Origin: Prevotellaceae bacterium
GTDB taxonomy: Bacteria > Bacteroidota > Bacteroidia > Bacteroidales > Bacteroidaceae
Direction: 5' to 3'
DNA: 46,573 bases
Assembly: GCA_022508585.1 (NCBI GenBank)
Contig: JAFLUU010000001.1
Location: 1 to 46,573, forward strand
The first letter of the stretch is position 1; every line of letters starts with the position of its first letter. Position numbers and translations under genes: made by a program. Of the stretch, positions 1 to 35,875 are shown one piece after another. The notes below the pieces were generated by a model that was not told where the DNA came from, ran no database searches, and saw only the letters and a list, made by a program, of their open reading frames with translations.

Positions 1-125
1 TTCACGACATTTCTACGCGCGCGGAGGCTCAAAAATCGTGCGCGGAGGCCTTTTCCATAAACTTTAAGGGGGTTAGGTGCACCATTGACGATACTCTGTG
101 TTGTGAGCACGATATTGGGCTATAC
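1..125. repeat. Partial copy (type-1 arm plus tail) of a ~300-bp composite palindromic intergenic repeat family, truncated by the window edge
   Basis: nt 1-80 (ttcacgacatttctacg..gaggctcaaaaatcg..ggaggccttttc..ggttaggtgc) align position for position with 35553-35632. Weaker homology continues to about nt 125. Confidence 0.8.
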
Positions 126-165
126 GCGCTCAATGATATGAGAAGGGGCGTGATGAAAAGGAGGA

Positions 166-1185
166 CTACGCTGCTCGCCTCATACCAATAAGAATAGGAC
201 AATATCTCTTCAGCACGAGAATAATAGGCACGAAGGCTAATAATGTCAAGATGCTGACGACAAATGTAGAAAAATCAGTGAGTATACTACCCCACTCTTG
301 CTTATAAATTATCTTCAACAGTGCATGATTTATCTCTTGGTGAAAGGTTAGGATGACGATGTTGCCATTGGCAATGAGGATTACGGCTTTGCTCTTAACT
401 TTGTCGAGACGCAAGGAGACTATAAGCAGGAACGATATGCCTGCAACTGCACTTAATGCAAACAGTAGTATGTTATGACCATAGAGGGCACGATATAGGT
501 AAGCAGTATCGTTATAAAAGCTGATAACGTAGGTTATCAGCACCAACACAACAACTATCATAACAGTTTGATAATTACTTAATCTCGTGATTATATTACA
601 AATTTTATTGAAAATATCGCTCGTGCGGCAAACTCCGCCAAACAAGAAGAATGGCATAGCTAAAAACATATTAGTTACGGACCACGCTATGTCTATATGG
701 AGAATATTATAGACTATAGCACCAACAATCGATAATAGTAGCAGAATACAACGCGACTTGCCACTTTGGCCAAACAGATGTACGATAATTTTAACAAGAA
801 TGAGCGTGTAAACAAACCAGAGTTTGTTGCACCCTGCGATGTCGCCGATAGAATGAAAGCCTGTGAGGATTGCCAATGCCGTTGTACCGCCATGAGCGGA
901 GAAGATATGAGGCAACGCTTTGACGGTGGCTAATATTAAATATGGCACTGTCAAGGTTATAAATAGTTTCTTCCAGAAGTGGTCGTCTTTGGTGGCCAAC
1001 TTCATAAGATAGCCCGATATAAAGAAAAACACTGCCACGTTAAATGAATATACAAACGATGTCAGGTGCTCAGGGAAGCAGTGTCCGTAGATTACGAACA
1101 GCATTGCGAGGGCTCTTATCCAGTCTACCCAATTTTTGCGTGTGGTTTGTGATTGCGGTGTTGCATTGTCTGATTGATTGCTCAT
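166..1185 (-). CDS. Acyltransferase family 3 (OafA/NolL-like) integral membrane O-acyltransferase
   Basis: The ORF is polytopic and hydrophobic. Its N-terminal signature WVDWIRALAMLFVIYGHC is typical of acyltransferase-3. I prefer the internal start MSNQSDN (ATG at 1183-1185) over the ORF-track start at 1251. Confidence 0.75.
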   Translation of the reverse strand: MSNQSDNATPQSQTTRKNWVDWIRALAMLFVIYGHCFPEHLTSFVYSFNVAVFFFISGYLMKLATKDDHFWKKLFITLTVPYLILATVKALPHIFSAHGGTTALAILTGFHSIGDIAGCNKLWFVYTLILVKIIVHLFGQSGKSRCILLLLSIVGAIVYNILHIDIAWSVTNMFLAMPFFLFGGVCRTSDIFNKICNIITRLSNYQTVMIVVVLVLITYVISFYNDTAYLYRALYGHNILLFALSAVAGISFLLIVSLRLDKVKSKAVILIANGNIVILTFHQEINHALLKIIYKQEWGSILTDFSTFVVSILTLLAFVPIILVLKRYCPILIGMRRAA

Positions 1186-5940: not shown

Positions 5941-8130
5941 ATGGCAAGATTAAGATTTAATGTGGTAGAAGCGGCTTTCAAAAAGAAGGCTTTGGAAATA
6001 AAGATGCCTACAGAGCGTCCCTCCGAGTACTTTGCAAAATATGTATTCAACAAGGAAAAGATGTTCCAGTATCTTTCTCCCTCCACCTACGAGCAATTGT
6101 GCGATGTGATCGAGAATGGCACACGCCTCGACCTCTCTGTGGCCGATGAGGTGGCCAAAGGTATGAAGAAATGGGCGCAAGAGTTCGGAGTTACCCACAT
6201 TACCCATTGGTTTCAGCCACTTACTGAAGGTACTGCCGAGAAACACGATGCCTTTGTTGAGCATGGAGACAACGGCGGCATGATTGAGAAATTCAGCGGC
6301 AAGGCTCTCGTACAGCAGGAGCCGGATGCGTCCTCTTTCCCCTCCGGTGGTATACGCTCCACCTTTGAAGCTCGCGGATACAGCGCGTGGGATCCGGCTT
6401 CGCCCGTCTTTGTTGTCGGCGATACGCTCATGATTCCTACCGTGTTCATCTCTTACACCGGCGAGGCTCTCGATTACAAAGCGCCCCTCAAGAAAGCGCT
6501 GGCAGCTGTCGACAAAGCTGCGACTGCCGTTTGTAAATATTTTGATCCGGAGGTTACAAAAGTTACTGCCAATCTTGGTTGGGAACAGGAGTACTTCCTT
6601 GTAGATGAAGACCTCTACGCTGCGCGCCCTGACCTGCTGCTTACAGGCCGCACTCTCACGGGACATGATTCAGCCAAGAATCAGCAAATGGAAGACCACT
6701 ATTTCGGAGCTATTCCCGACCGCGTGGCAGAATTTATGAAGGATCTTGAGATCCAAGCTCTTGAGTTAGGCATTCCGTGCAAGACTTGTCATAACGAAGT
6801 CGCTCCCAATCAGTTTGAGCTCGCCCCTATTTACGAAGAATGCAACTTGGCTGTAGACCACAATATGCTGCTGATGAGCCTTATGCGCAAAGTAGCTCGC
6901 AAGCACGGCTTCCGTTGTCTACTGCATGAGAAGCCCTTTGCCGGAATTAACGGTAGCGGCAAGCACGCCAATTGGTCGCTGGCTACAAACACGGGCGTAG
7001 TACTTCATGCCCCCGGGAAAACTCCGGAAGACAACCTTAGATTTCTCGTTTTTGCAGTGGAAACACTCGTAGGACTGCACAAACATAACGGACTGCTCAA
7101 GGCTTCTATCATGAGCGCGACCAATCAGCATCGTCTTGGGGCGAACGAAGCACCACCGGCAATCATCTCGGCATTTTTGGGCAAGCAAATTTCCGAAGTG
7201 TTCGACAAAATAGAGAATTCCTCTAATGAAGAGCTCATTTCTATCAAGGGTAGTAGCGCTTTGAGCCTTGATATTCCACAAATTCCCGACCTGCGCATAG
7301 ATAATACCGACCGCAACCGCACTTCTCCCTTCGCTTTTACAGGTAACCGCTTCGAATTCCGTGCCGTTGGTTCGCAAGCCAATTGTGCAGAGGCAATGAC
7401 CGTACTTAACACTGCCGTGGCCGAAGCCCTTACCGATTTCAAGACGCGAGTAGACGAACATATAGCCAATGGCGAGGACAAGACGACTGCCATTATCCGT
7501 GTACTGCGCGAAGACATCAAAGCCAGCAAGCCCATTCACTTCGAGGGCAATGGTTACTCCGACGAATGGAAAGCTGAAGCCGAGCGTCGTGGTTTGGACT
7601 GCGAGACTTCCTGTCCGCTCGTTTTCGACCGTTATCTCGACCTCGAGACAATCAAGATGTTCGAGGAGCAGAATGTAATGCGTGAGTTAGAGTTGAAAGC
7701 TCGCAACGAGATCAAATGGGATACTTACACTAAAAAGATACAGATTGAGGCTCGTGTGTTTGGCGACATGGCGATGAACCAGATTATTCCCGTTGCTACA
7801 CGTTATCAGAGTCTTCTGATCGACAATGTTAGCAAGATCGCCGCCACTTTCAGTGCTGAAGAGGCAGAACAACTTAACGCTGACAATCTGAAGATTATCC
7901 GTGAGATTTCGGAGCATACTCGCTTCATCATAGAGAACGTGAACGCCATGGTGGAAGCACGCAAAGTGGCCAATCGTATAGAGTCGGAACGTGAAAAAGC
8001 TATTCAGTATCACGACACAGTGCAACCTTATCTCGATAGTATCCGCTATCATGCGGACAAGCTCGAACTATTAGTAGAGGACGAGCTATGGGTGTTGCCC
8101 AAATACCGCGAACTGCTCTTTATCCGATAA
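5941..8130 (+). CDS. glnN: Glutamine synthetase type III
   Basis: 729 aa, the typical GSIII length. The GSIII N-terminus (PSEYFAKYVFNKEKM) and catalytic core motifs (EVAPNQFELAP, NGSGKHANWS) are present. Confidence 0.92.
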   Translation: MARLRFNVVEAAFKKKALEIKMPTERPSEYFAKYVFNKEKMFQYLSPSTYEQLCDVIENGTRLDLSVADEVAKGMKKWAQEFGVTHITHWFQPLTEGTAEKHDAFVEHGDNGGMIEKFSGKALVQQEPDASSFPSGGIRSTFEARGYSAWDPASPVFVVGDTLMIPTVFISYTGEALDYKAPLKKALAAVDKAATAVCKYFDPEVTKVTANLGWEQEYFLVDEDLYAARPDLLLTGRTLTGHDSAKNQQMEDHYFGAIPDRVAEFMKDLEIQALELGIPCKTCHNEVAPNQFELAPIYEECNLAVDHNMLLMSLMRKVARKHGFRCLLHEKPFAGINGSGKHANWSLATNTGVVLHAPGKTPEDNLRFLVFAVETLVGLHKHNGLLKASIMSATNQHRLGANEAPPAIISAFLGKQISEVFDKIENSSNEELISIKGSSALSLDIPQIPDLRIDNTDRNRTSPFAFTGNRFEFRAVGSQANCAEAMTVLNTAVAEALTDFKTRVDEHIANGEDKTTAIIRVLREDIKASKPIHFEGNGYSDEWKAEAERRGLDCETSCPLVFDRYLDLETIKMFEEQNVMRELELKARNEIKWDTYTKKIQIEARVFGDMAMNQIIPVATRYQSLLIDNVSKIAATFSAEEAEQLNADNLKIIREISEHTRFIIENVNAMVEARKVANRIESEREKAIQYHDTVQPYLDSIRYHADKLELLVEDELWVLPKYRELLFIR

Positions 8131-11464: not shown

Positions 11465-12787
11465 CTATTTAGTCATCTCCTGCTCGATAGCACGAATTTC
11501 CTCTTTGTAATTCGGCGCCGTCTTAATCTTTATATCCACCTGCCGACAGGCGTGTAGCACCGTGGTGTGGTCGCGTCGACCGATGTGCAGCCCTATTTGC
11601 GTGCTGCTCATGTTCGTATGCTTCTGCATCAGATACATGGCAATCTGCCTGGCCTTCACAATGTTAGCCTTGCGCGAGGCAGAGTCCATATCCTTGTGCG
11701 TAATCTTGTAGAACTTGCACGTAGTGCTTACCACCAGTTCCGGAGTAATCACTTTAGCCTTAAAACGCACCAAGCGAGAGACTATACGCTCCGTCATTTC
11801 GAGCGTAATCTCGCTGTCGTTGAGTATAGACTGCACAAGGAGCGAGTTGATCACACCCTCCAGATCGCGCACGTTATCCGTTACATTCGTCGCAATATAG
11901 TCCACCACGTTTTTGGGGATATTCAGCTGATTTTTACGTATCTTAGCTTTCAGAATATTGCGGCGCAACTGTTCATCGGGGCGCAAAATTTCAGCAGTAG
12001 CCCCCATAACGAAACGCGAACTTACCCGCTCCTCAAAACCCTCCAACTTTGAGGGTGCTTTATCGGACGTAAAGATGATTTGCCGCCCGTTGCGCTGCAG
12101 ATGGTTGAAGATGTTGAACAGCGCCTCCTGCGTCTTGGCCTTACCCGAAATCTCATGTATATCATCCACTATCAGACAGTCGATAGACTGGTAGAAATAC
12201 ATAAAGTCATTAAACTTATTCTTCGGTACAGAGTCCGTGTACTGAATAAGGAAGTCGTGCGCCGAGACATAAAGCACTCGCTTCGAAGGATCATTCTCCA
12301 ATATTTTCAGACCAACCGCGTTAACCAAATGAGACTTGCCGACACCGGAGCTTCCGTATAGGAAAAAAGGGTTAAACGCGGTCTGCATCGGCTTAGTCGC
12401 GATAGTCATAGCTATAGAGCGCGCCAATTTGTTAGCATCACCCTTAACGAAGTTATCAAAAGTGTAAGCATCGCTCAGATGCGAATTAAAAATCGGTCTG
12501 GTGGGCTTCACCTCGTTAGCCACAGGCATATTGACAGGCGCTTCCTCCTTGACCCGTATATCCACATCGATAACCCCGAACACTTTGTCGACTTCCGCCT
12601 GCAGCATTTGGCCAAAATGCTCGGCCAAGTACTCGTAGAAGAAATTATTAGGCACCTGTAGGAACACTTTGTCCTCCTCCACTCCGAGAAAGACGATATG
12701 CTCAAACCATGTAGCGAACGTGTCTTGAGAAATCCGGGGGCGGATAGCCTCAAGCACCTCAGTCCATTTGTCTTGGTTCGCAATCAT
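11465..12787 (-). CDS. dnaA: Chromosomal replication initiator protein DnaA
   Basis: The AAA+ Walker A (GSSGVGKSHL), Walker B (LIVDDIH) and C-terminal DNA-binding domain (ARQIAMYL, IGRRDHTTVLHA) are all present. Confidence 0.95.
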   Translation of the reverse strand: MIANQDKWTEVLEAIRPRISQDTFATWFEHIVFLGVEEDKVFLQVPNNFFYEYLAEHFGQMLQAEVDKVFGVIDVDIRVKEEAPVNMPVANEVKPTRPIFNSHLSDAYTFDNFVKGDANKLARSIAMTIATKPMQTAFNPFFLYGSSGVGKSHLVNAVGLKILENDPSKRVLYVSAHDFLIQYTDSVPKNKFNDFMYFYQSIDCLIVDDIHEISGKAKTQEALFNIFNHLQRNGRQIIFTSDKAPSKLEGFEERVSSRFVMGATAEILRPDEQLRRNILKAKIRKNQLNIPKNVVDYIATNVTDNVRDLEGVINSLLVQSILNDSEITLEMTERIVSRLVRFKAKVITPELVVSTTCKFYKITHKDMDSASRKANIVKARQIAMYLMQKHTNMSSTQIGLHIGRRDHTTVLHACRQVDIKIKTAPNYKEEIRAIEQEMTK

Positions 12788-12822
12788 GGTATTTATATCA
12801 TCGTTGCACTATAAACGGACTG

Positions 12823-12830
12823 CAAATTTA
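12823..12830 (-). promoter_or_regulatory. -7 promoter box (TAAATTTG on the minus strand) for dnaA
   Basis: TAnnTTTG match, 36 nt upstream of the dnaA ATG. Confidence 0.5.
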
Positions 12831-12945
12831 ATGTAAATTAAGCAAAATACAGTACCACGAGGGCACTTTTTATCAGATTTGCACAACAGAGACGTGAAGA
12901 AAGCCTATAACGTTATTTATAAATAATCTCTATATAAACAACTTT

Positions 12946-15900
12946 CTAAGACATTGGCTTTATCATTGATTCAATAAAGTTTATTTCTTCTTCAGTTAAA
13001 TTGTATTTCCGATATAGTTGCTTATCTATTTCTGCCACACTCTTGCTCCAATCTATATCCGACTTTGCCGTAAAGTCTTGAATTGGAACAAAAGCAAAAC
13101 TATCTCTTGAGATTTGTTGTGTAATGACTTTTAATGATAGTAGATAACGTAAGAATTTTGTACATAAATATTTTGCAGCATTATCTACAATAATTTTATC
13201 CGCGGAATGGTAGACGAGAAGATAAGTCTCCGAGCAAATAACATTGGGTTCTAAAACTTTAACCTTAGGAAGAACCTTTCGTTTTCCGTCTTTATCTGCA
13301 CGACCAGCCGATTCACTTGCTCTTGAACAAATAACTTTCCATTCATCCACGACATTACTATTTACAACAACATCTGCGCGGTCAACATACGACACGCCTT
13401 GACGTCCATACAAGGCAACAGACGACGAATTACTATTCTCGTAGCCAACATAATTTGTCGGGAATCCAAAAGGTTTCCTACTAAATACAATAGAAGATAA
13501 TGTCTCTTCTTCTTTACTCGACACTTTTTGCAGTAAATCTATAGCAGCAGTACTTCTTACAAATACAGAATGTTCGTTTAGTTTTCTATAAGACACCTTT
13601 CGCTCTCCTGCTGTTATATTTTCAAAGCGGCACTCTCCGTGATAATCATGTTCGTGAAGAAAGTAGCATATTCCTCCTGCTATATTGACTGTCGGAAAAA
13701 TATCTCTGGAGTCAGTATAGTCAAACAAAGTTTTTATGCGGTCATCATTCAGCATGTCCTCTCTAAAAGCATCGAGCCCCTTACCTCCAGCGTACCACCT
13801 TGCTGGCATAATCATCGACATATAGTTAGGTATAAGCCTCTTTGCCATATCAACAAACAAGTTATAAACAGGAATTGCGCTCGCTTGTGCTCCTCCGTCC
13901 ATTTCTTGATACGGCGGATTACCTACTATCGCTTTTATTCTCATATCTTTTCCTACAAGATTGCTAACTTTCTTTATAAAAAGTTCCGGCTGGTTTTTAA
14001 TTTTGTTGATTAAGTCATCGGGAGCCCACATATTGGTCTTGCCTTTGCGGAAGCCAAACAGTGTGCGGCGCGTGATAGTTTTTGCCATAGGCGTTTTGCA
14101 TATCACAAAAATGTTATCTGCTATTACTGCGTCCCAAATAGCCTGATGCTCAGCGAGAGTGCGAGGCGAGGAAACATTATCGCGCAGACGCGAACGATAG
14201 ACATTATATGCCAAATACAGCGGATAAAGTCCTGATTTGCTGTTAATCTCAAGCAAACACGCGTCGGGACGGAACACATCGGCGGTAACATTGTCGCGCT
14301 CCACGAAGCGCGGCTCTTCTATAGTGTCGGAGAAGTCCTCATTGAAGAAAGTGTAGCCTCCAAGGCAGTCGCTCATATGCATATTGACCACGCGCCACGG
14401 TGTAAGCACCGTTTCCTTATCAGGATTGCGGAAAGTGCTGAAAATATCAGCGATGCGCCCGATGCGTTCCTCCACCGTTAGGTTGTCTGCCGCGCGAGCC
14501 ATTTGTCTGATGCGCTTAGCCGCAGCAGTAAAAATGTCGGGATCGTAATATTTCTTGAAATCATTGAAATGTTCCTTGCTCACACCGCGCGGCATAAACT
14601 CTTCCCATGATGTGTCGTCGACAAGCGCGGTGAAATTATCTATCGTCAGCTCCCTGTCCTCGTCCACGATGTTTGCACCATATATAAGCAGGGGCATACG
14701 GATGCTGATGCCGCGCAGTATGGAGATAGCATCGTCTCTTAGCTTGCGCCGCTTTGCCAATTCCTCGCGGCGAGCACGCTCTTCGTCGCTAAGCTCGCTT
14801 TTCTTTTTCTTGTTAAGCCTCTCCATCTCGGCATACTCCTCATTAGTCAGCCCCTGCTCGTTGACAGCAATCTTATTCGACTTAGCAATCGCTTTGGTCT
14901 TGCCGATAATGCCCTTGAGGTTGTTAAACTCCTTGAGTTCAAGTGCAGAGAGCTTCATCAGCTCGTCGTTATATAGGTAGCCGTCCTCAAAACCATTGCG
15001 CACCACTCTCTCCACATACACGCGCTTAAGCTGTTGGAGCATCTGCTCCGTGTCATACTGCTTCATTCGGCTGCCCTCAATGCCGATGACGGGGCAGAAG
15101 TTGAGAAACTCTCTCAGTAGCCTGCGGTCATCGTCCGTCTGCTTGCCGGCCTTGCGCGACACCTTGGCCGTCTCGGCTAATACGCGCAGCGTGCGGTCGG
15201 GGGCGAAGTCAAAGACATAGCAATCCTCCTTGACGCGCCCACAGATGGTGGCAGGCGTCTGCACACGGAAGATGGTCTGCATATAACTCGCGGCAGCAGT
15301 GTTGTAATTGCCCGACAGCATCAGCACGCCCGTCCATGCCGGCACACTGACACCCGTAGTCAGCCTGCCGCACGACAGCGTGATGGTCTCGGTGGCCGAC
15401 GGGTCAGCAGTGATTGCCTGTTGCACTTTTTCGAGAGCGTTATTATAACGCCGGGTATCGTCGTCTTCTTTTACCCCCATGTCGCCGGCCACATTCACTA
15501 TCTTCACGCCGCGTGCTCCGAAGCAGTCGTGGTCTAAGAGCATCTGCTCGAGGGCGGCAGCCTCCTTCACGCCCGGCACTATCCACAGCGTGTGGCGAAA
15601 GATATTGCGGTAGCGCTCGTTGGCAAAGGGATACATGCTGTGCTCATCGGTCTTGGTCAGCAAGTTAAGGAAGCTCTGAATATATCGCTTATGCACAAAC
15701 TCGCCGCTATCGTCGACACGAAAGAACTCCTTGAAGTTGAAAGCCAGTTCTTCATCGGCAAACTCGTTAAGCAGACGCCCGAGGTCATAGGTATAGATGT
15801 GCATCGTGGGCAGCGCGGCGTAGGGGTTGTGGTCGCCCGGGTGGTCGATGTCCCATTGCGCCTTGGCGCGCTGCTCCATCACATAGTCCCATGTGTAAAT

Positions 15901-16914
15901 CTCGTCCTCGCTGTAGTCATTGAGCAGATTAAAGGGCGTACCCGAGAGGTTGAGCACCTTGGTAGTCTCCTTCACAAGCTCATTCAGCACACTCTTTCCT
16001 AATTCGGTCTGAGTGCCTTCGTGAGCCTCGTCCACGATTATCAAATCCCACTCCGCCGAGAACAGTTCATCGTTCTTGTCGAAGTGGCCGCCCACCAACT
16101 CCGAGCCGCGCAAGTCCTGCATCGACGCAAAGTAGACATAGCCGCCCTCTCCCTTCCTCGAGCGGCTCTCAAGCGACTGAAAGCTCTCGCTTTTACTCTT
16201 AGAGCCGTACATAAATGTGGCATCGTCATAAAAAATCTTGCCGAAATCTTCAAACCACCCCTCGTCCACCACCGGACGGTGCGTCAGTATGAGCACACGC
16301 TGCATAGGCTGATGCTTCTTGCCGTCAGCCACAGTCTGATTCCACTCCTTCACCACCTGCAAGGCCGACAGCGTCTTGCCGAAGCGCATCTTGGCGTTCC
16401 AGAGCATCTTGTTGCTGCGCCGAAAGTGCTTGAGCGTGCTGCCGATAGCCTCTCTTTGCTCCGCACGAAACACTATAGGCGACCTACGCGTGCCGACCTG
16501 CCCTGCATTGAGCGCAGCCCTGCCTGCCTTGGCGGCAGCAATTGCCTGTTTGGCTGTCTCAAGGTCGCACACATACCACTCGTTGGCACCGTCCACATGG
16601 GGAAACTTCTTTTTCTTCACACCCGAGCGGTCAAGCACCTCATGCACTTTATGATCATTGATGCCGCAGAGCCTGCCGCCCTTAGAGAATATCGCCACCT
16701 CGGTGTGCAGCAGCTCATAGGCGATGCCGGCTGTCTTAGTGTACTGGTCGATGCGCCGGCGCGCCGTCCTGTTGAGTACAACGCTGTTAGGCGGCAGATT
16801 GATGTCGCCGTCCTCGAAAGTAGCCTCGCCAATCTTTACACAATCACGGTGCGCCGCGTCATTGATGCGGAACACATAAATCAATTTGGCCTTAAGGTCA
16901 GAAAAATACTCCAT
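12946..16914 (-). CDS. 1322-aa fusion protein with a T5orf172/GIY-YIG-like nuclease domain, an SF2 (ResIII/SNF2-like) helicase, a charged coiled-coil coupler, a gamma-class N6-adenine DNA methyltransferase (Eco57I/TaqI-like) and a target-recognition domain. It is a Type ISP-like restriction-modification or defence enzyme.
   Basis: aa 8-125: LIYVF..VKIGEAT..RRRI..HEVL..NEWY (T5orf172/GIY-YIG pattern). Helicase motif I is AKMRFGKT (16372-16395), motif II is IIVDEAH (around 16021-16035), motif III is LSGTP, and motif VI is QTIFRVQT. aa 690-730 form a Lys/Arg/Glu-rich coiled coil. MTase motif X is ETVLTPWRVVN (around 14383-14403), motif I-like is LLEINSKSGLYP (14221-14256), and motif IV is NPPY (13909-13920). 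The C-terminal TRD ends LYRKYNLTEEEINFIESMIKPM. Confidence 0.8.
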   Translation of the reverse strand: MEYFSDLKAKLIYVFRINDAAHRDCVKIGEATFEDGDINLPPNSVVLNRTARRRIDQYTKTAGIAYELLHTEVAIFSKGGRLCGINDHKVHEVLDRSGVKKKKFPHVDGANEWYVCDLETAKQAIAAAKAGRAALNAGQVGTRRSPIVFRAEQREAIGSTLKHFRRSNKMLWNAKMRFGKTLSALQVVKEWNQTVADGKKHQPMQRVLILTHRPVVDEGWFEDFGKIFYDDATFMYGSKSKSESFQSLESRSRKGEGGYVYFASMQDLRGSELVGGHFDKNDELFSAEWDLIIVDEAHEGTQTELGKSVLNELVKETTKVLNLSGTPFNLLNDYSEDEIYTWDYVMEQRAKAQWDIDHPGDHNPYAALPTMHIYTYDLGRLLNEFADEELAFNFKEFFRVDDSGEFVHKRYIQSFLNLLTKTDEHSMYPFANERYRNIFRHTLWIVPGVKEAAALEQMLLDHDCFGARGVKIVNVAGDMGVKEDDDTRRYNNALEKVQQAITADPSATETITLSCGRLTTGVSVPAWTGVLMLSGNYNTAAASYMQTIFRVQTPATICGRVKEDCYVFDFAPDRTLRVLAETAKVSRKAGKQTDDDRRLLREFLNFCPVIGIEGSRMKQYDTEQMLQQLKRVYVERVVRNGFEDGYLYNDELMKLSALELKEFNNLKGIIGKTKAIAKSNKIAVNEQGLTNEEYAEMERLNKKKKSELSDEERARREELAKRRKLRDDAISILRGISIRMPLLIYGANIVDEDRELTIDNFTALVDDTSWEEFMPRGVSKEHFNDFKKYYDPDIFTAAAKRIRQMARAADNLTVEERIGRIADIFSTFRNPDKETVLTPWRVVNMHMSDCLGGYTFFNEDFSDTIEEPRFVERDNVTADVFRPDACLLEINSKSGLYPLYLAYNVYRSRLRDNVSSPRTLAEHQAIWDAVIADNIFVICKTPMAKTITRRTLFGFRKGKTNMWAPDDLINKIKNQPELFIKKVSNLVGKDMRIKAIVGNPPYQEMDGGAQASAIPVYNLFVDMAKRLIPNYMSMIMPARWYAGGKGLDAFREDMLNDDRIKTLFDYTDSRDIFPTVNIAGGICYFLHEHDYHGECRFENITAGERKVSYRKLNEHSVFVRSTAAIDLLQKVSSKEEETLSSIVFSRKPFGFPTNYVGYENSNSSSVALYGRQGVSYVDRADVVVNSNVVDEWKVICSRASESAGRADKDGKRKVLPKVKVLEPNVICSETYLLVYHSADKIIVDNAAKYLCTKFLRYLLSLKVITQQISRDSFAFVPIQDFTAKSDIDWSKSVAEIDKQLYRKYNLTEEEINFIESMIKPMS

Positions 16915-16918
16915 ATCG

Positions 16919-17935
16919 CTATCCTTTAATCAAGTCCACAAATCTTATTTTCTGCTTCTCCCCTTTTGCGCTCCAGTCCTTCACGAGCGCATAAGTGCCA
17001 TTGTGGGCGCGCAGCTCGTCAGTCCTGCACCCTTGGCAGTGCTCGATGCGCTCCACCGTCCCGAATAATTCCTCCTCCACCTCCCTGCGTTCGCCGCAAG
17101 AGTCGGGGACGACACATTTCAAACCGTCCATCTGCCAGATGTTCCAAGAGATGATGTAAGCAATGTATTTTACGGACTTCAGCAGCGGCTCCCTTTCAAA
17201 CTTAGCCTTATAATAGTCCGTAAAAGTATGTAACAAGTTCATACGCGCCAGCAGCAGGTTGTCGCCCTGCCAGTCATAGCCGTAGATGCTCTGATAAGCC
17301 GACTGCGCCGCCTTAAGCCATTCGGCGGAAGTCTCGCAGTTTTCGCTAACCACCCTCAGCTTGCGGTCAAGCAAGCCGATGCGTTCCTCTATGGGGATAA
17401 ACCTGCCGGTAGTAGCGTCATAGCGGCTCACAAGGTAGGGAGCTTCGCCGCAAGTAATCTCAAGGCGGTTTTCATTGACATAGCTGCGCCAAGTTTTACC
17501 CTCGGGAAAGTTCACTGGCTCCTTGTTTACTGTCCAAGAGTGGCTGCCGTCGGGAGCATCTACCTCGACATTAAACACACCCTCGCGGCCGAACCACGCA
17601 GAGTCCACCAAGTTGTTCTGCGCATTGCAAATCCACGACGGAGTGAACACCTCCGCCATCTCCTTAGCCCTCGCCTGCTGACTCAAGCGCGACTTGAGCA
17701 CGCGGGGGAGCACCACATCGCTCCGACTGCCGCTCACAAGATGCGACATAATCTCGTCGGCGTAGCCATAGCCTTCGCCAAGCTCCTCATAGTCGTGAGT
17801 AGCCCAAAAGATGTTGCGGCCGGTAGTATGATCGCGGAGCAATATGTCTAATAGCTCCGGCGCATAGTCAGCCAAATCGTTCTCCCTGATGTCTACACCA
17901 AGGTTGTTGCCACTTATAGCATTTGCTTTTGGCAT
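16919..17935 (-). CDS. 338-aa partner protein. It resembles the N-terminal half of a gamma-class N6-adenine methyltransferase (motif X, I and II/III-like), lacks an NPPY-type motif, and has a C-terminal 4-Cys putative zinc-binding cluster.
   Basis: The MTase-like motifs are AEVFTPSWICN (motif X-like), LEITCGEAPYL (compare M.TaqI EPACAHGPFL) and IYGYDWQGDNLLLARMNLL (HsdM/Eco57I motif II-III-like). I found no (N/D)PP(Y/F/W). The Cys cluster is C274-x5-C280...C300-x2-C303. The stop lies 4 nt before the start of the 1322-aa ORF. Confidence 0.65.
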   Translation of the reverse strand: MPKANAISGNNLGVDIRENDLADYAPELLDILLRDHTTGRNIFWATHDYEELGEGYGYADEIMSHLVSGSRSDVVLPRVLKSRLSQQARAKEMAEVFTPSWICNAQNNLVDSAWFGREGVFNVEVDAPDGSHSWTVNKEPVNFPEGKTWRSYVNENRLEITCGEAPYLVSRYDATTGRFIPIEERIGLLDRKLRVVSENCETSAEWLKAAQSAYQSIYGYDWQGDNLLLARMNLLHTFTDYYKAKFEREPLLKSVKYIAYIISWNIWQMDGLKCVVPDSCGERREVEEELFGTVERIEHCQGCRTDELRAHNGTYALVKDWSAKGEKQKIRFVDLIKG

Positions 17936-18226: not shown

Positions 18227-18354
18227 GTAACTTTTTGGGATAAAGCATCTATTTAACTCTAAAAATCGCCACTAAACCACCTCGCCACCACAACAAATTA
18301 GAATATTTTTTGCCCTATGCGTGCGTACATTATTATAAATACTCTATATATTGT

Positions 18355-18652
18355 TTGAAATACCGTGCGAACTCATAGAAATGTCGTGCGCGCCCGATTT
18401 TAGCGCCTCCGCGCGCGTAGAAATGTCGGGAAAGTTCAAAAATTCCTATAAGAATTTCTAAAAAATCTTATAAGAATTCTCGGAAATTTATATAAGAATT
18501 TTTGAAAATTCTTATATGATTTTTTCAAAATCAACGAGCAAAAAACAAATGCGCAGGCTCAAAAATCAGACGCCGAGGCCTTTTCTATGAAGTTTGAGGG
18601 GGTTAAGTGCAGCAAGGACGAGGTTTTATGTAATTTTGAGGGGATAAGGTAC
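18355..18652. repeat. Full copy B of the composite palindromic intergenic repeat (arm, four-palindrome core at 18441-18522, arm)
   Basis: The core is about 93% identical by eye to the cores at 26253-26334 and 35463-35544. The left arm is the reverse complement of the type-1 arm (gtagaaatgtcgggaa, 18417-18432). The right arm is type-2 (aacgagcaaaaaacaaatgcgcagg..ggttaagtgc). Confidence 0.85.
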
Positions 18653-18674
18653 GGCTTTGGCGATATTGTAAAAC

Positions 18675-18710
18675 AAAAAGAGAGGAAAACTAAGTTTTTC
18701 CTCTCTTTTT
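18675..18710 (-). terminator. Hairpin immediately downstream of tRNA-Asp
   Basis: aaagagaggaaaac and gtttttcctctcttt form a ~14-bp stem flanked by A/T runs, 2 nt from the tRNA 3' end. Confidence 0.6.
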
Positions 18711-18712
18711 GT

Positions 18713-18789
18713 TGGCGGTGCGTACGGGACTCGAACCCGTGACCCCCTGCGTGACAGGCAGATATTCTAACCAACTGAACTAACGCACC
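18713..18789 (-). tRNA. tRNA-Asp (anticodon GTC), CCA encoded
   Basis: The reverse complement is GGTGCGTTAGTTCAGTTGGTTAGAATATCTGCCTGTCACGCAGGGGGTCACGGGTTCGAGTCCCGTACGCACCGCCA. It folds by hand into a cloverleaf with a 7-bp acceptor stem, anticodon loop CTGTCAC and T-loop TTCGAGT. Confidence 0.93.
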
Positions 18790-26125: not shown

Positions 26126-26424
26126 CGAAACATCGTTCTATCAGTTCGCAAAGTCGTGCATTCTGTGTAAAACATCGTCAAAACTTCTCCTAATGTCGTG
26201 CGGACTCACAGAAAAGGTCTCCGGACTTGTAGAAATGTCGTGAAAATTCAAAAAATATTATAAGAATTTCTAAAAAATCATATAAGAATTCCCGAGAATT
26301 TATATAAGAATTTTTGAAAATTCTTATATGATTTTTTCAAATTCCACGAGCAAAAAACAAATGCGCAGGCTCAAAAATCAGATGCCGAGGCCTTTTCTGT
26401 GAGTCCGCACGACTTTTCTCACAC
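26126..26424. repeat. Full copy C of the composite palindromic intergenic repeat (core 26253-26334)
   Basis: It has the same architecture as copy B. Six ~21-bp units lie to the left (TCGT at 26133, 26154, 26175, 26196 and 26238). The core holds four palindromes, and a type-2 arm lies to the right. The outer inverted repeat pairs gtgcggactcacagaaaagg with ccttttctgtgagtccgcac. Confidence 0.85.
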
Positions 26425-26461
26425 ATAAATGAACTAAACATAAATTGCGAACTATTAGTAC

Positions 26462-26498
26462 AAAAAAGTAGAGGCGTCGAAACAAGTCCGACGCCTCT
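26462..26498 (-). terminator. Rho-independent terminator of rubrerythrin
   Basis: The perfect 10-bp GC-rich stem agaggcgtcg/cgacgcctct has a 9-nt loop. A T-run follows on the minus strand (aaaaaag on plus). Confidence 0.7.
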
Positions 26499-34261: not shown

Positions 34262-35317
34262 ATGGTTAACTCTTCTATCTCGCGCGTCATCTCGCGGCTC
34301 CGTTTCCCCTTAATGGTGGGCGTAGTATTCATCCACTCCAAAAGTATCTTCATCAAACCGGAGATGCCCTTGCTATCAAACATCGCAACATTCTTCTCCT
34401 CCATACTGCCATCGTTCTGCGTGCCACTATTCTTCACATTCTCCGGCTATCTATTCTTCGCCAGCACACCAAACCTCACTCCCAGCGACTATGGCCGCAA
34501 GCTAAAGAAACGATTTCGCACCCTTGCCGTGCCTTACCTCTTCTGGAACTCCTTGACAATAGCCGCCCTTTGGATAACTGGCCGCCTCGTGCCATCAATA
34601 GCCAACCCTGTGTTTGAAACGGCATCATCTACCCTCTCCCCAGAATTGTTAAAATGCTTTTATTGCCTATCCGACGGATTTCCTATCGCCTATCAGTTTT
34701 GGTTTGTGCGCGACCTTATGATAGCTATCGTCTTCTCCCCTATCGTATACCTCATTGTTAAGAAGACACCAATCGGGATAATATGCCTAACGATTAGCTA
34801 CTTTATCCTACCGCACATGACAGCGTGGTATTTCTTCTCATTAGGAGCATATTTCGCAGTGCAACAGAGAGATTTCATCGCTTTATCAAACAAATTATTC
34901 AAATACGCCGTCATTATCGGGACACTCTCGCTCATTACGCTGATAGCGATTGGCAATATATTTAAAGCCGCGGAGTTTTACATTATCAGCTCGATGATTG
35001 TGGTGGTAGCAGTTGCCGCCAAATGCATCGGCACTCACAGCAAATACAACCATTTCTTCTCCAAATATTGCAGAACCGCTTGGCAATATACAGGAGGTCG
35101 TTACGACCCCTCATTTTTCTTATTCTGTTACCACACGCTGCCGCTCATGGTAATAAAAAAGATAAGCAGTTCGTTCTTGGCAGACAAAAGCGAATGGTTC
35201 TGGATTGTCGATTACTTCTTCAACCCGATTATCGTCACAATCATAGGCGTTGTATTGTACAAGTATCTCTACAAATACGCGCCACGCCTGCTCTCTTTCG
35301 TTACAGGAGGGCGATAA
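34262..35317 (+). CDS. Acyltransferase family 3 integral membrane protein
   Basis: The ORF is polytopic. The N-terminus (RLRFPLMVGVVFIHS) and FFTFSGYLFF are typical of acyltransferase-3. It is a diverged paralogue class of the gene at 166-1185. Confidence 0.75.
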   Translation: MVNSSISRVISRLRFPLMVGVVFIHSKSIFIKPEMPLLSNIATFFSSILPSFCVPLFFTFSGYLFFASTPNLTPSDYGRKLKKRFRTLAVPYLFWNSLTIAALWITGRLVPSIANPVFETASSTLSPELLKCFYCLSDGFPIAYQFWFVRDLMIAIVFSPIVYLIVKKTPIGIICLTISYFILPHMTAWYFFSLGAYFAVQQRDFIALSNKLFKYAVIIGTLSLITLIAIGNIFKAAEFYIISSMIVVVAVAAKCIGTHSKYNHFFSKYCRTAWQYTGGRYDPSFFLFCYHTLPLMVIKKISSSFLADKSEWFWIVDYFFNPIIVTIIGVVLYKYLYKYAPRLLSFVTGGR

Positions 35318-35340: not shown

Positions 35341-35653
35341 AGTCCTCAAAACAGAGCTAAATCGCGCCGAAATTTTACCTAACCCCCTCAAAGTTTGAAA
35401 AAACATCGTGCGCATCTGATTTTTGAGCCTCCGCGTTTGTTTTTTCATCGTGAAACTTAAAAAATTCTTATAAGAATTTCTAAAAAACCTTATAAGAATT
35501 TCCGGGAATTTATATAAGAATTTTTGAAAATTCTTATAAGATTTTTTCATTCTTCACGACATTTCTACGAATTTCGAGGCTCAAAAATCGTACGTGGAGG
35601 CCTTTTCTGCGAACTTTGACGAGGTTAGGTGCAGTTTTGAGAATATAAGGTGC
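35341..35653. repeat. Full copy D of the composite palindromic intergenic repeat (core 35463-35544), with arms swapped relative to copies B and C
   Basis: The core is in the same plus orientation as in B and C. The left arm is the reverse complement of type-2 (35428-35454) and the right arm is type-1 (35553-35632). The terminal inverted repeats are cctaaccccctcaaagtt and aactttgacgaggttagg. Confidence 0.85.
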
Positions 35654-35875
35654 GACCATGACGATATTTAGTGCTGTGAATACGGCAATTTATTATAGTC
35701 TTAATGATTGCTATCAATCTCTTGTAGACATTGATAGCCGCATTGATAAACATCGAGCAAAGCGCGGTGTTTCAATAAGACTGCGCTCTCGCCATATTTA
35801 CATGATAGTCCGCGTTACCAGCGATACGTTTGCCGATATGGCTCATGAAGGCTTTGCCTTTGTTATTTTTTTTCG

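Follow-up and report, generated by a model that had tools for sequence, protein, structure and literature searches.

The described element closest to the one treated here is BrickBuilt of Porphyromonas gingivalis, an intergenic and species-limited element that resembles transposable elements of the miniature inverted-repeat type (MITEs), and that has a 23-nt internal repeat and forms long stem-loops (Klein et al. 2015, PMC4596501). BrickBuilt consists of 1–22.8 head-to-tail 23-nt units placed between a distinct leader and a distinct tail with short terminal inverted repeats (TIRs) of the IS5 type (PMC4596501). MITEs as such are abundant in Bacteroidota, whose genomes hold tens of thousands of genus-specific clusters (PMC11602168). 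We describe a ~300-bp non-coding palindromic repeat of an uncultured Prevotellaceae species, a Prevotella-like bacterium of the gut, identified in a stretch of 46,573 nt (contig JAFLUU010000001.1, positions 1 to 46,573; hereafter the window), and compare it with the published description of BrickBuilt. As for BrickBuilt, the element has a Bacteroidales host, is strictly intergenic and a few hundred bp long, and has an internal period of 22–23 nt; long stem-loops are predicted, there is no match in Rfam, the distribution is species-limited, most copies are fuzzy or degenerate at their ends, and the native terminators of neighbouring genes are intact. The two differ in that the present element carries four 22-bp sites of mixed orientation instead of a variable head-to-tail array, and arms of mirrored 21-bp units instead of a distinct leader and tail.

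Five copies of the repeat, every one of them intergenic, are found in ~72 kb of one genome, this being the window together with a left-extending European Nucleotide Archive (ENA) contig of the same strain (L003) and a right-extending contig (L028). The reading that we favour, at about an even chance of being correct, is that the element is an interspersed repeat, non-coding, non-autonomous and restricted to its lineage, and that it belongs to the class comprising MITEs, bacterial interspersed mosaic elements (BIMEs) and BrickBuilt. The copies are as follows, the T tails being a type of arm unit listed further below.

Window 1..128, plus strand: copy A, right arm only, the rest being cut off by the window edge; the full copy lies at about 7082-7440 of L003
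Window 18353..18679, plus strand: copy B, subfamily B/C
Window 26133..26465, plus strand: copy C, subfamily B/C, without T tails
Window 35343..35680, plus strand: copy D, subfamily A/D
L028 9380-9790, ~19.8 kb to the right of D: copy E, between an epimerase gene and tig

An earlier, sequence-only reading of the window had placed four copies there, all intergenic, and in this it is supported alike by the repeat families, an exactly shared 26-mer and shuffle controls, the four stretches being related to one another and to nothing else in the window. Its borders proved less accurate: the copies are where it put them, but the extents do not hold, since the periodic structure reaches further (to ~35680 in D, over 26133-26465 in C and to ~18679 in B). 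A repeat search of the window yields a direct-repeat family of 184 nt with three copies (D1; at 18407, 26219 and 35429, with 77–91% identity), a second of 93 nt in which window positions 1-93 are joined to the right arms of B and D (D2), and long inverted pairs both within and between copies. B, C and D each contain the 26-mer TATAAGAATTTTTGAAAATTCTTATA without a mismatch, where none is expected from shuffles, and the words GAGGCTCAAAAATC, GGAGGCCTTTTC and GTAGAAATGTCGTG as well as the tail word are confined to the copies within the window, far above shuffle expectation. Outside the element the five copies have no sequence in common, their flanks being unrelated. Copy A is complete on its source contig, an ENA contig that overlaps the window and reaches further left. 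Copy E is more divergent than A–D, with sites that read TATATGAAT and a best orientation opposite to theirs, the core orientation being common to four of the five copies (A–D). All five fall within one 56-kb stretch that includes dnaA, spaced 8–20 kb apart, and no further copy was found in the outer 7 kb and 9.5 kb of the ~72 kb. As had been supposed when the copies were taken for a dispersed family, the family is not confined to the window, since copy E is located beyond its edge and contigs of independent assemblies break off within the element.

The whole element is a pseudo-palindrome of 13–16 units, ~270–330 bp in length, in a strict 21/22-bp register throughout, which agrees with the earlier impression of an organisation more ordered than that of a simple hairpin. 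Lag 21 gives the top autocorrelation in all four copies A–D (0.38–0.44, against a shuffle maximum of 0.35–0.37), and either lag 21 or lag 42 ranks top in all eight arms. Marking of short words shows that successive steps are 21 bp long in the arms and 22 bp long within the core. For copy D, the left-arm words are TCGTG at 35406, GCCTC at 35427 and TCGTG at 35448, the core word TATAAG recurs at 35469, 35491, 35513 and 35535, and the right-arm words are CACGA at 35555, GAGGC at 35576 and 35597, and GACGA at 35618 and 35660. These words are mirrored about 35503/35504, and the symmetry centre of the whole element is TTTCC/GGGAA. Word positions in copy C are 26154, 26175, 26196 and 26238, then 26259, 26281 and 26303, and finally 26345, 26387 and 26408.

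The core is composed of four TTATAAGAAT sites at a spacing of exactly 22 bp, built on the palindrome TTATAA. Site number is fixed at four in every copy, and site orientation is mixed, with the fourth inverted: the AGAAT flank is on the right side in core sites 2 and 3, and on the left side in site 4. In A and D, core site 1 forms the perfect 14-bp palindrome ATTCTTATAAGAAT. At three cores (B, C and D), 22-bp arrays of 3.5–4.2 units are also called independently by Tandem Repeats Finder; these cores occupy the following positions.

18437..18522, plus strand: core of B, with (C/T)TATAAGAAT / ATTCTTATATGAT sites centred at 18448.5, 18470.5, 18492.5 and 18514.5
26249..26334, plus strand: core of C, with four sites 22 bp apart
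35459..35544, plus strand: core of D, with sites centred at 35470.5, 35492.5, 35514.5 and 35536.5

The arm units, each 21 bp long, belong to a few related types that follow one plan, an A- or T-tract and then a GC-rich word of 5–6 bp.

Unit M (variants Ma and Mb): TAGAAATGTCGTG
Unit U: GAGGCTCAAAAATC
Unit V: GGAGGCCTTTTC
Unit T (tail): AACTTTGAGGGGGTTAGGTGC

Outer GACGATATT-like units lie beyond M, U, V and T and fade into the flanks. The units occupy mirrored positions in the two arms, with U, M and T common to both in inverted orientation, and they are not self-complementary, short palindromes being present only at the core sites. The combination of units is specific to the copy.

Arms of A and D: left (outside to core) T'-M-U'-Mb; right (core to outside) Ma'-U-V-T(-T)
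Arms of B: left Ma-U'-Ma; right Mb'-U-V-T-x-T
Arms of C: left M-M-M-V'-Ma; right Mb'-U-V-M'
3-16, 24-37 and 44-55: Ma' (reverse complement of GTAGAAATGTCGTG), U (GAGGCTCAAAAATC) and V (GGAGGCCTTTTC) in the right arm of copy A
63-80: T tail in the outer part of the right arm of copy A, followed by outer GACGATA/CACGATATT units
18353-18436: left arm of copy B, with an outer unit, Ma, U' and Ma
18523-18679: right arm of copy B, with Mb', U, V, T, a spacer unit, T and an outer unit
26133-26248: left arm of copy C, with three or four M-type units, V' and Ma
26335-26465: right arm of copy C, with Mb', U, V and M'; an outer partner of an inverted repeat lies at 26446-26464
35375-35395, 35396-35416, 35417-35437 and 35438-35458: left units T', M, U' and Mb of copy D
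35545-35565, 35566-35586 and 35587-35607: right units Ma', U and V of copy D
35608-35628, 35629-35649 and 35650-35670: outer right units of copy D, namely T, T and an outer GACGATATT unit

In the sequence-only reading, tail units occurred once or twice at each end in inverted orientation. This is true of A and D, where tail units (TTTGAGGGGnTAAGGTGC) are present at both ends, but B carries them at the right end only and C has none; the tail spacing is 21 bp in D and 42 bp in B. Pairing of arm blocks between left and right was likewise proposed, and it applies to GAGGCTCAAAAATC in A, B and D, where this word is in both arms, but not in C, which has it in the right arm only. For GGAGGCCTTTTC the situation is the reverse, since the word is in the right arm of every copy with a left partner only in C, and there is thus no left–right pairing of GGAGGCCTTTTC in A, B and D. 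A 30-nt inverted repeat (93%) joins 26192-26221 and 26387-26416 in copy C, where the V units form the best inverted repeat. Copy E contains exactly one extra 21-bp unit in one arm, which appears as a 21-column alignment gap. A resemblance to parS half-sites (CGTGAAAC) in A and D was dropped as it is not conserved in B or C.

The copies divide into two subfamilies, A/D and B/C. The central block is 90–98% identical within a subfamily, the outer arms are 56–73% identical between subfamilies, and the 63-nt inner arms are 87–95% identical between copies of the same subfamily. Over 86 nt the cores of B and D have 92% identity, in keeping with the earlier estimate by eye of about six differences in 90 positions. 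A simple inversion between A/D and B/C was rejected: the core orientation is constant, the V-U arm never leaves the right side, and the inner M unit alone is exchanged for another type, which points to mosaic exchange and not to one inversion. From this pattern we infer concerted evolution of the copies, with a homogenised centre. In two contigs from other samples (L021 and L022, positions 1-220; SRR26459667 and SRR16767943), the outer right units of copy D read CGCACGACATCTG..., TATCGTGCACC... and TTCACGACAAC, and the right arm of D is ~200 bp closer to the ABC-F gene. The altered outer units in these contigs show fast within-species turnover of outer arm units.

The predicted hairpin is very stable, both as RNA (-125 kcal/mol, z = -11.6) and as DNA (z = -5.9). 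Between the left arm and the reverse complement of the right arm of the same copy, identity is only 52–65% (63-nt inner arms), and the consensus fold has an unfavourable covariation term (+3.17) with few compensatory changes among six sequences. The low self-complementarity and the unfavourable covariation argue for conserved DNA words held in register rather than for a selected stem. The balance thus leans towards sequence words being conserved more than pairing, six sequences being weak evidence in this respect. No open reading frame (ORF) is conserved among the copies; the longest open frame, of 81 codons, is found in one copy only, and the 80-aa peptide derived from it has no relative among 5.8 billion proteins, which speaks against a mis-called related ORF over the other copies. 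The Bacteroidetes promoter consensus (TTTG-N17-23-TAnnTTTG) is not found inside the element, the real promoters being located beyond it. Nor is intrinsic curvature supported, since the A-tracts are phased at ~21 bp and are not coherent at 10.5 bp.

The sequence-only reading had recognised no described element, in line with which the searches of Rfam, phage and plasmid records, IMG/VR, JGI and GTDB gave no match to the element. The exact 26-mer core has no match in 185,579 GTDB species genomes, where a triple-site pattern gives five matches, none of which is the element. A JGI metagenome scan gave one chance match, a hairpin in a mitochondrial cox2-cox3 spacer, and four pattern scans of IMG/VR followed by nhmmer on 31 loci gave chance matches only, while blastn against plasmid and phage records returned nothing similar. 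At the Rfam gathering score, tRNA-Asp is the only match in the window, and an Rfam scan of a full copy at E <= 1 gave only sub-threshold miRNA and U4 noise.

The order at copy D in the window is FAA_hydrolase, acyltransferase, element D and ABC-F. In a sister species (ABC-F 94% identical), FAA_hydrolase and ABC-F are separated by 233 bp without the element. The situation at copy E is similar, where the source species has PAD, epimerase, element E and tig, and a sister species (trigger factor 81% identical) has PAD and tig separated by 79 bp, again without the element. No copy was found in ~45 kb of two sister species. Copy D is present in six of six independent samples of the source species, the outer right arm and the neighbouring acyltransferase genes varying by strain. 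Contigs of independent assemblies of the same species start or end inside the element (an ENA contig begins at window 35569, and Logan contigs end at 26352 or begin just after the D and E cores), as is expected at multi-copy repeats. A further contig (L017; SRR26069920), in which ABC-F differs by one residue, has a P-type ATPase gene followed by MaoC, nitroreductase, B3_4, FMN_red and NUDIX, unlike the window strain, where the FMN_red-NUDIX block is on the far side of copy A. Homology between L017 and the window or L003 stops ~20 bp upstream of the FMN_red ATG, ~130 bp from copy A; the gene orders of the two strains differ by a rearrangement with junctions close to element copies.

One of the five triple-site matches is an array in a metagenome-assembled genome of another, uncultured Prevotellaceae (CAMHPM010000062.1; L007 4824-5051), which consists of 5.6 units of a 22-bp repeat, ATAAGAATTTTGCTTTGCTCCT, and then 3.8 units of a 21-bp repeat. 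It is located between a herA-like gene and hsp20, and has the TATAAGAAT word and the 22/21-bp periods in common with the window element. The array is not palindromic, and the hidden Markov model of the element does not detect it. Its assignment as a plasmid iteron array was ruled out because the neighbours are chromosomal (pheS, the herA-like gene and hsp20). It may hint at a wider class of 21–23-bp 'brick' repeats in Bacteroidales.

Copies A, B, D and E adjoin accessory or low-GC genes or synteny breaks. Copy A neighbours an Acyl_transf_3 gene (window 166-1185), and so does copy D (window 34262-35317), which starts 24 bp past the stop of that gene; the neighbour of copy E is an NAD-dependent epimerase gene (L028 8405-9307). 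GC drops to 42–43% in the window stretches that hold the two acyltransferases, and the genes adjoining D and E are absent at the orthologous sites of the sister species. A duplicated cassette was ruled out for the two acyltransferases, which are distant paralogues (29% identity over 110 aa). Every copy lies between co-directional genes, just downstream of one, and the flanking genes are on the minus strand at A–C and on the plus strand at D with identical core orientation. A hairpin with a T-run at ~18675-18710 separates copy B from a tRNA gene, and a GC-rich hairpin with a T-run at 26468-26493 lies between the rubrerythrin gene and copy C, from which it appears that the neighbouring genes keep their own terminators.

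18713..18789, minus strand: tRNA-Asp(GTC), neighbour of copy B, outside the element

The dnaA gene (11465-12787, minus strand) adjoins an Eco57I/ResIII type IIG restriction-modification gene (12946-16914, 1322 aa), and the same block (11465-17935) includes a 338-aa gene without a Pfam match, with GC at 38% at 13–14 kb; copy B is 420 bp upstream of this block. PorV and a C25 peptidase with a type IX secretion system (T9SS) domain are also among the window genes and, like the nearest relatives of the window's proteins, indicate an uncultured Bacteroidaceae/Prevotellaceae as the source. In L028, two tRNA-like genes were recognised by reading of the sequence back to back at 6270-6470, in the spacer that separates the glycogen-debranching gene from sod.

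The element is multi-copy, non-coding and intergenic, and has inverted-repeat arms; it is absent from relatives, breaks assemblies, and is mosaic with a homogenised centre. On these grounds its tentative assignment to the MITE/BIME/BrickBuilt class is the most economical interpretation, and it is most probably another lineage-specific selfish repeat, unusually regular in build but of an ordinary kind in origin. Those MITE features that are seen are a length below ~600 bp, the lack of coding capacity and the inverted-repeat arms, the termini not being sharp. By analogy, the phased words are best explained as predicted binding sites of a trans-acting protein. Such a protein, encoded elsewhere, would recognise the words, which recur once per two helical turns and are inverted in one arm relative to the other. 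A transposase or recombinase with several subterminal binding sites, as found at the ends of Tn7, Mu and IS21, is one possibility, and the protein would spread the element into tolerant intergenic DNA. Later, recombination or gene conversion between copies, together with the gain or loss of entire 21-bp units, would have made the arms mosaic and divided the copies into two subfamilies. As a substrate for recombination, the element probably also has side effects at synteny breakpoints.

Several observations speak against assignment to this class. The MITE-like character proposed in the sequence-only reading holds as far as multi-copy, long imperfect palindromes are concerned, but not for the hallmarks of mobility: no shared direct repeat that would represent a target-site duplication was found at any plausible end of A–D, where the ends decay outward and are so fuzzy that a duplication is not callable, and the Pfam families in the gene tables of the 72 kb include no transposase, integrase or RAYT-like gene. 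The sister-species sites at D and E also lack the neighbouring gene (acyltransferase and epimerase, respectively) and are not clean empty sites, and in the strain comparison at A homology ends ~130 bp from the element. The gradient of identity, with a high centre and low ends, is unlike a simple recent transposition of a TIR-bounded unit, and the presence of D in all six samples indicates that this copy is old enough for fixation. Finally, the confinement of all five copies to 56 kb that include dnaA makes a local cluster with host function possible.

A host function of this kind could be that of a protein-binding array, i.e., a scaffold for a nucleoid-associated protein, a partition or centromere-like protein or a global regulator, by which the element organises the chromosome or insulates neighbouring genes in the manner of BIMEs, to which IHF and gyrase are said to bind. 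Site 1, a perfect palindrome of 14 bp (ATTCTTATAAGAAT), is typical of dimeric helix-turn-helix sites, and the exact 22-bp spacing, the mirrored register, conserved words that outweigh pairing, the regular spread of copies 8–20 kb apart over the dnaA-containing stretch, and a core orientation common to four of five copies would all fit such an array. However, the element is missing at the orthologous sister-species sites and in every other genome searched, which is unexpected of a housekeeping function, the arm composition varies from copy to copy, the A/T tracts, not being coherent at 10.5 bp, do not support strong intrinsic curvature, and there is no candidate gene for the binding protein nearby; we therefore consider the array conceivable but unlikely. 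A dedicated protein–DNA platform, with a dimeric protein on the four core sites and a second factor on the arm words, appears more doubtful still. The symmetric complex would either mark or create entry points for foreign genes, or constitute a chromosomal iteron- or centromere-like decoy. The regular 21/22-bp architecture together with the accessory-gene islets keeps this idea alive, and its gene-entry version draws on the accessory genes that adjoin A, B, D and E and on the neighbour missing in the sister species at D and E. A role at the RNA level, of the type proposed for ERIC, RUP and BrickBuilt, is rather unlikely. Here, read-through transcription would give an RNA hairpin of ~300 nt, which would act as a terminator, protect the mRNA upstream or be processed into small RNAs. 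The very stable predicted hairpins (z = -11.6 for RNA and -5.9 for DNA) and the location of every copy between co-directional genes just downstream of one, with D beginning only 24 bp past the acyltransferase stop, agree with this proposal. The genes before B and C already have their own hairpin and T-run terminators, however, and orientation relative to the flanking genes varies, as A–C are among minus-strand and D among plus-strand genes with the same core orientation. Furthermore, inner arms that are only 52–65% self-complementary without a compensatory pattern, the lack of an Rfam match, and the lack of a Bacteroidetes-type promoter inside the element all disagree with an RNA function.

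True homology with Porphyromonas BrickBuilt or IS5-derived MITEs would require that the V unit GAGGCCTTTTC is a decayed IS5-type terminal inverted repeat (GAGACCTTTGCA) and that the outer T units are later additions. The V unit agrees with terminal repeats of BrickBuilt in 9–10 positions out of 12, the 3' repeat of BrickBuilt_18 has GAGGCCTTTGCA as its reverse complement, copy C carries GAGACCTTTTC, the V units are the best inverted repeat of C, and the internal repeats are 22–23 nt in both elements. The likeness of GAGACCTTTGCA to GAGGCCTTTTC/GAGACCTTTTC is nevertheless loose and, at 12 nt, weak; V is internal in A, B and D, where it has no left partner, and paired only in C. The arms are mutual inverted repeats as against a distinct leader and tail, and the core units are fixed at four as against a variable 1 to 23. 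BLASTn by the BrickBuilt authors matched only P. gingivalis, with homologues also in P. gulae (PMC4596501). Homology is accordingly improbable. Least probable is local segmental duplication or chance similarity without any family, a reading effectively refuted by the repeat families and exact shared words. All known copies do fall within one 56-kb stretch, but their flanks are unrelated with the element alone in common, shuffle controls give ~0 expected matches, and the two subfamilies and mosaic arms imply a history longer than one duplication.

If the element does belong to the MITE/BIME/BrickBuilt class of interspersed repeats, a repeat family that is well defined and limited to one lineage is added to an uncultured Prevotellaceae species; the element would then explain why short-read assemblies of the species fragment at the copies, and it would mark synteny breakpoints and accessory-gene islets. 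The strict 21/22-bp register with its exchangeable units would provide a clean natural example of repeat evolution by whole units, and TTATAAGAAT at 22-bp and TAGAAATGTCGTG at 21/42-bp spacing would constitute testable candidate binding sites. The element could then also be used as a marker for typing strains or linking hosts, a use that has been proposed for Bacteroidota MITEs (PMC11602168). If the platform were real, Bacteroidales would have a new type of system for site-specific gene capture or for organisation of the chromosome.

Beyond BrickBuilt, similarities to other known systems are noted at the level of organisation. Transposon ends such as those of Tn7 (22-bp TnsB sites), the Mu att sites and IS21 carry several short sites, and plasmid iterons are arrays of 3–7 phased repeats with 22-bp phasing. 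The element likewise has several short words ~22 bp apart, in opposite orientation as at transposon ends. The analogy is structural only, since the copies are not accompanied by a transposase, a rep gene, a cluster of DnaA boxes or an unwinding element; an iteron origin differs further in view of the mixed site orientation, the absence of a rep gene from the 72 kb, the five chromosomal copies and the lack of a plasmid match. ERIC, Correia/NEMIS, RUP and BOX are intergenic imperfect palindromes or modular repeats of 100–300 bp, which are lineage-specific and form long hairpins when transcribed, BOX being modular with an internally repeated boxB. Neither a 21/22-bp register of the whole element nor a palindromic core of four sites is known from any of these, and there is no sequence similarity to them, as none was recovered by Rfam. 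Repetitive extragenic palindromic (REP) units are individually palindromic, 20–40 bp long and linked to RAYT transposases, and BIMEs are intergenic mosaics of a few short units in alternating orientation. REP units are classified by a GTAG or a CGTC tag (PMC3733652). The REP/BIME-like character suggested by the sequence-only reading stands for the BIME part, as the element is an intergenic mosaic from a small vocabulary of units in alternating orientation and in copy-specific combination. It does not extend to the definition of a REP unit, because the arm units are not individually palindromic, the spacing is a strict 21/22 bp, and the 72 kb hold no RAYT-like gene. The element thus belongs to no named family, and is best regarded as a variant form of the MITE/BIME/BrickBuilt-type repeats.

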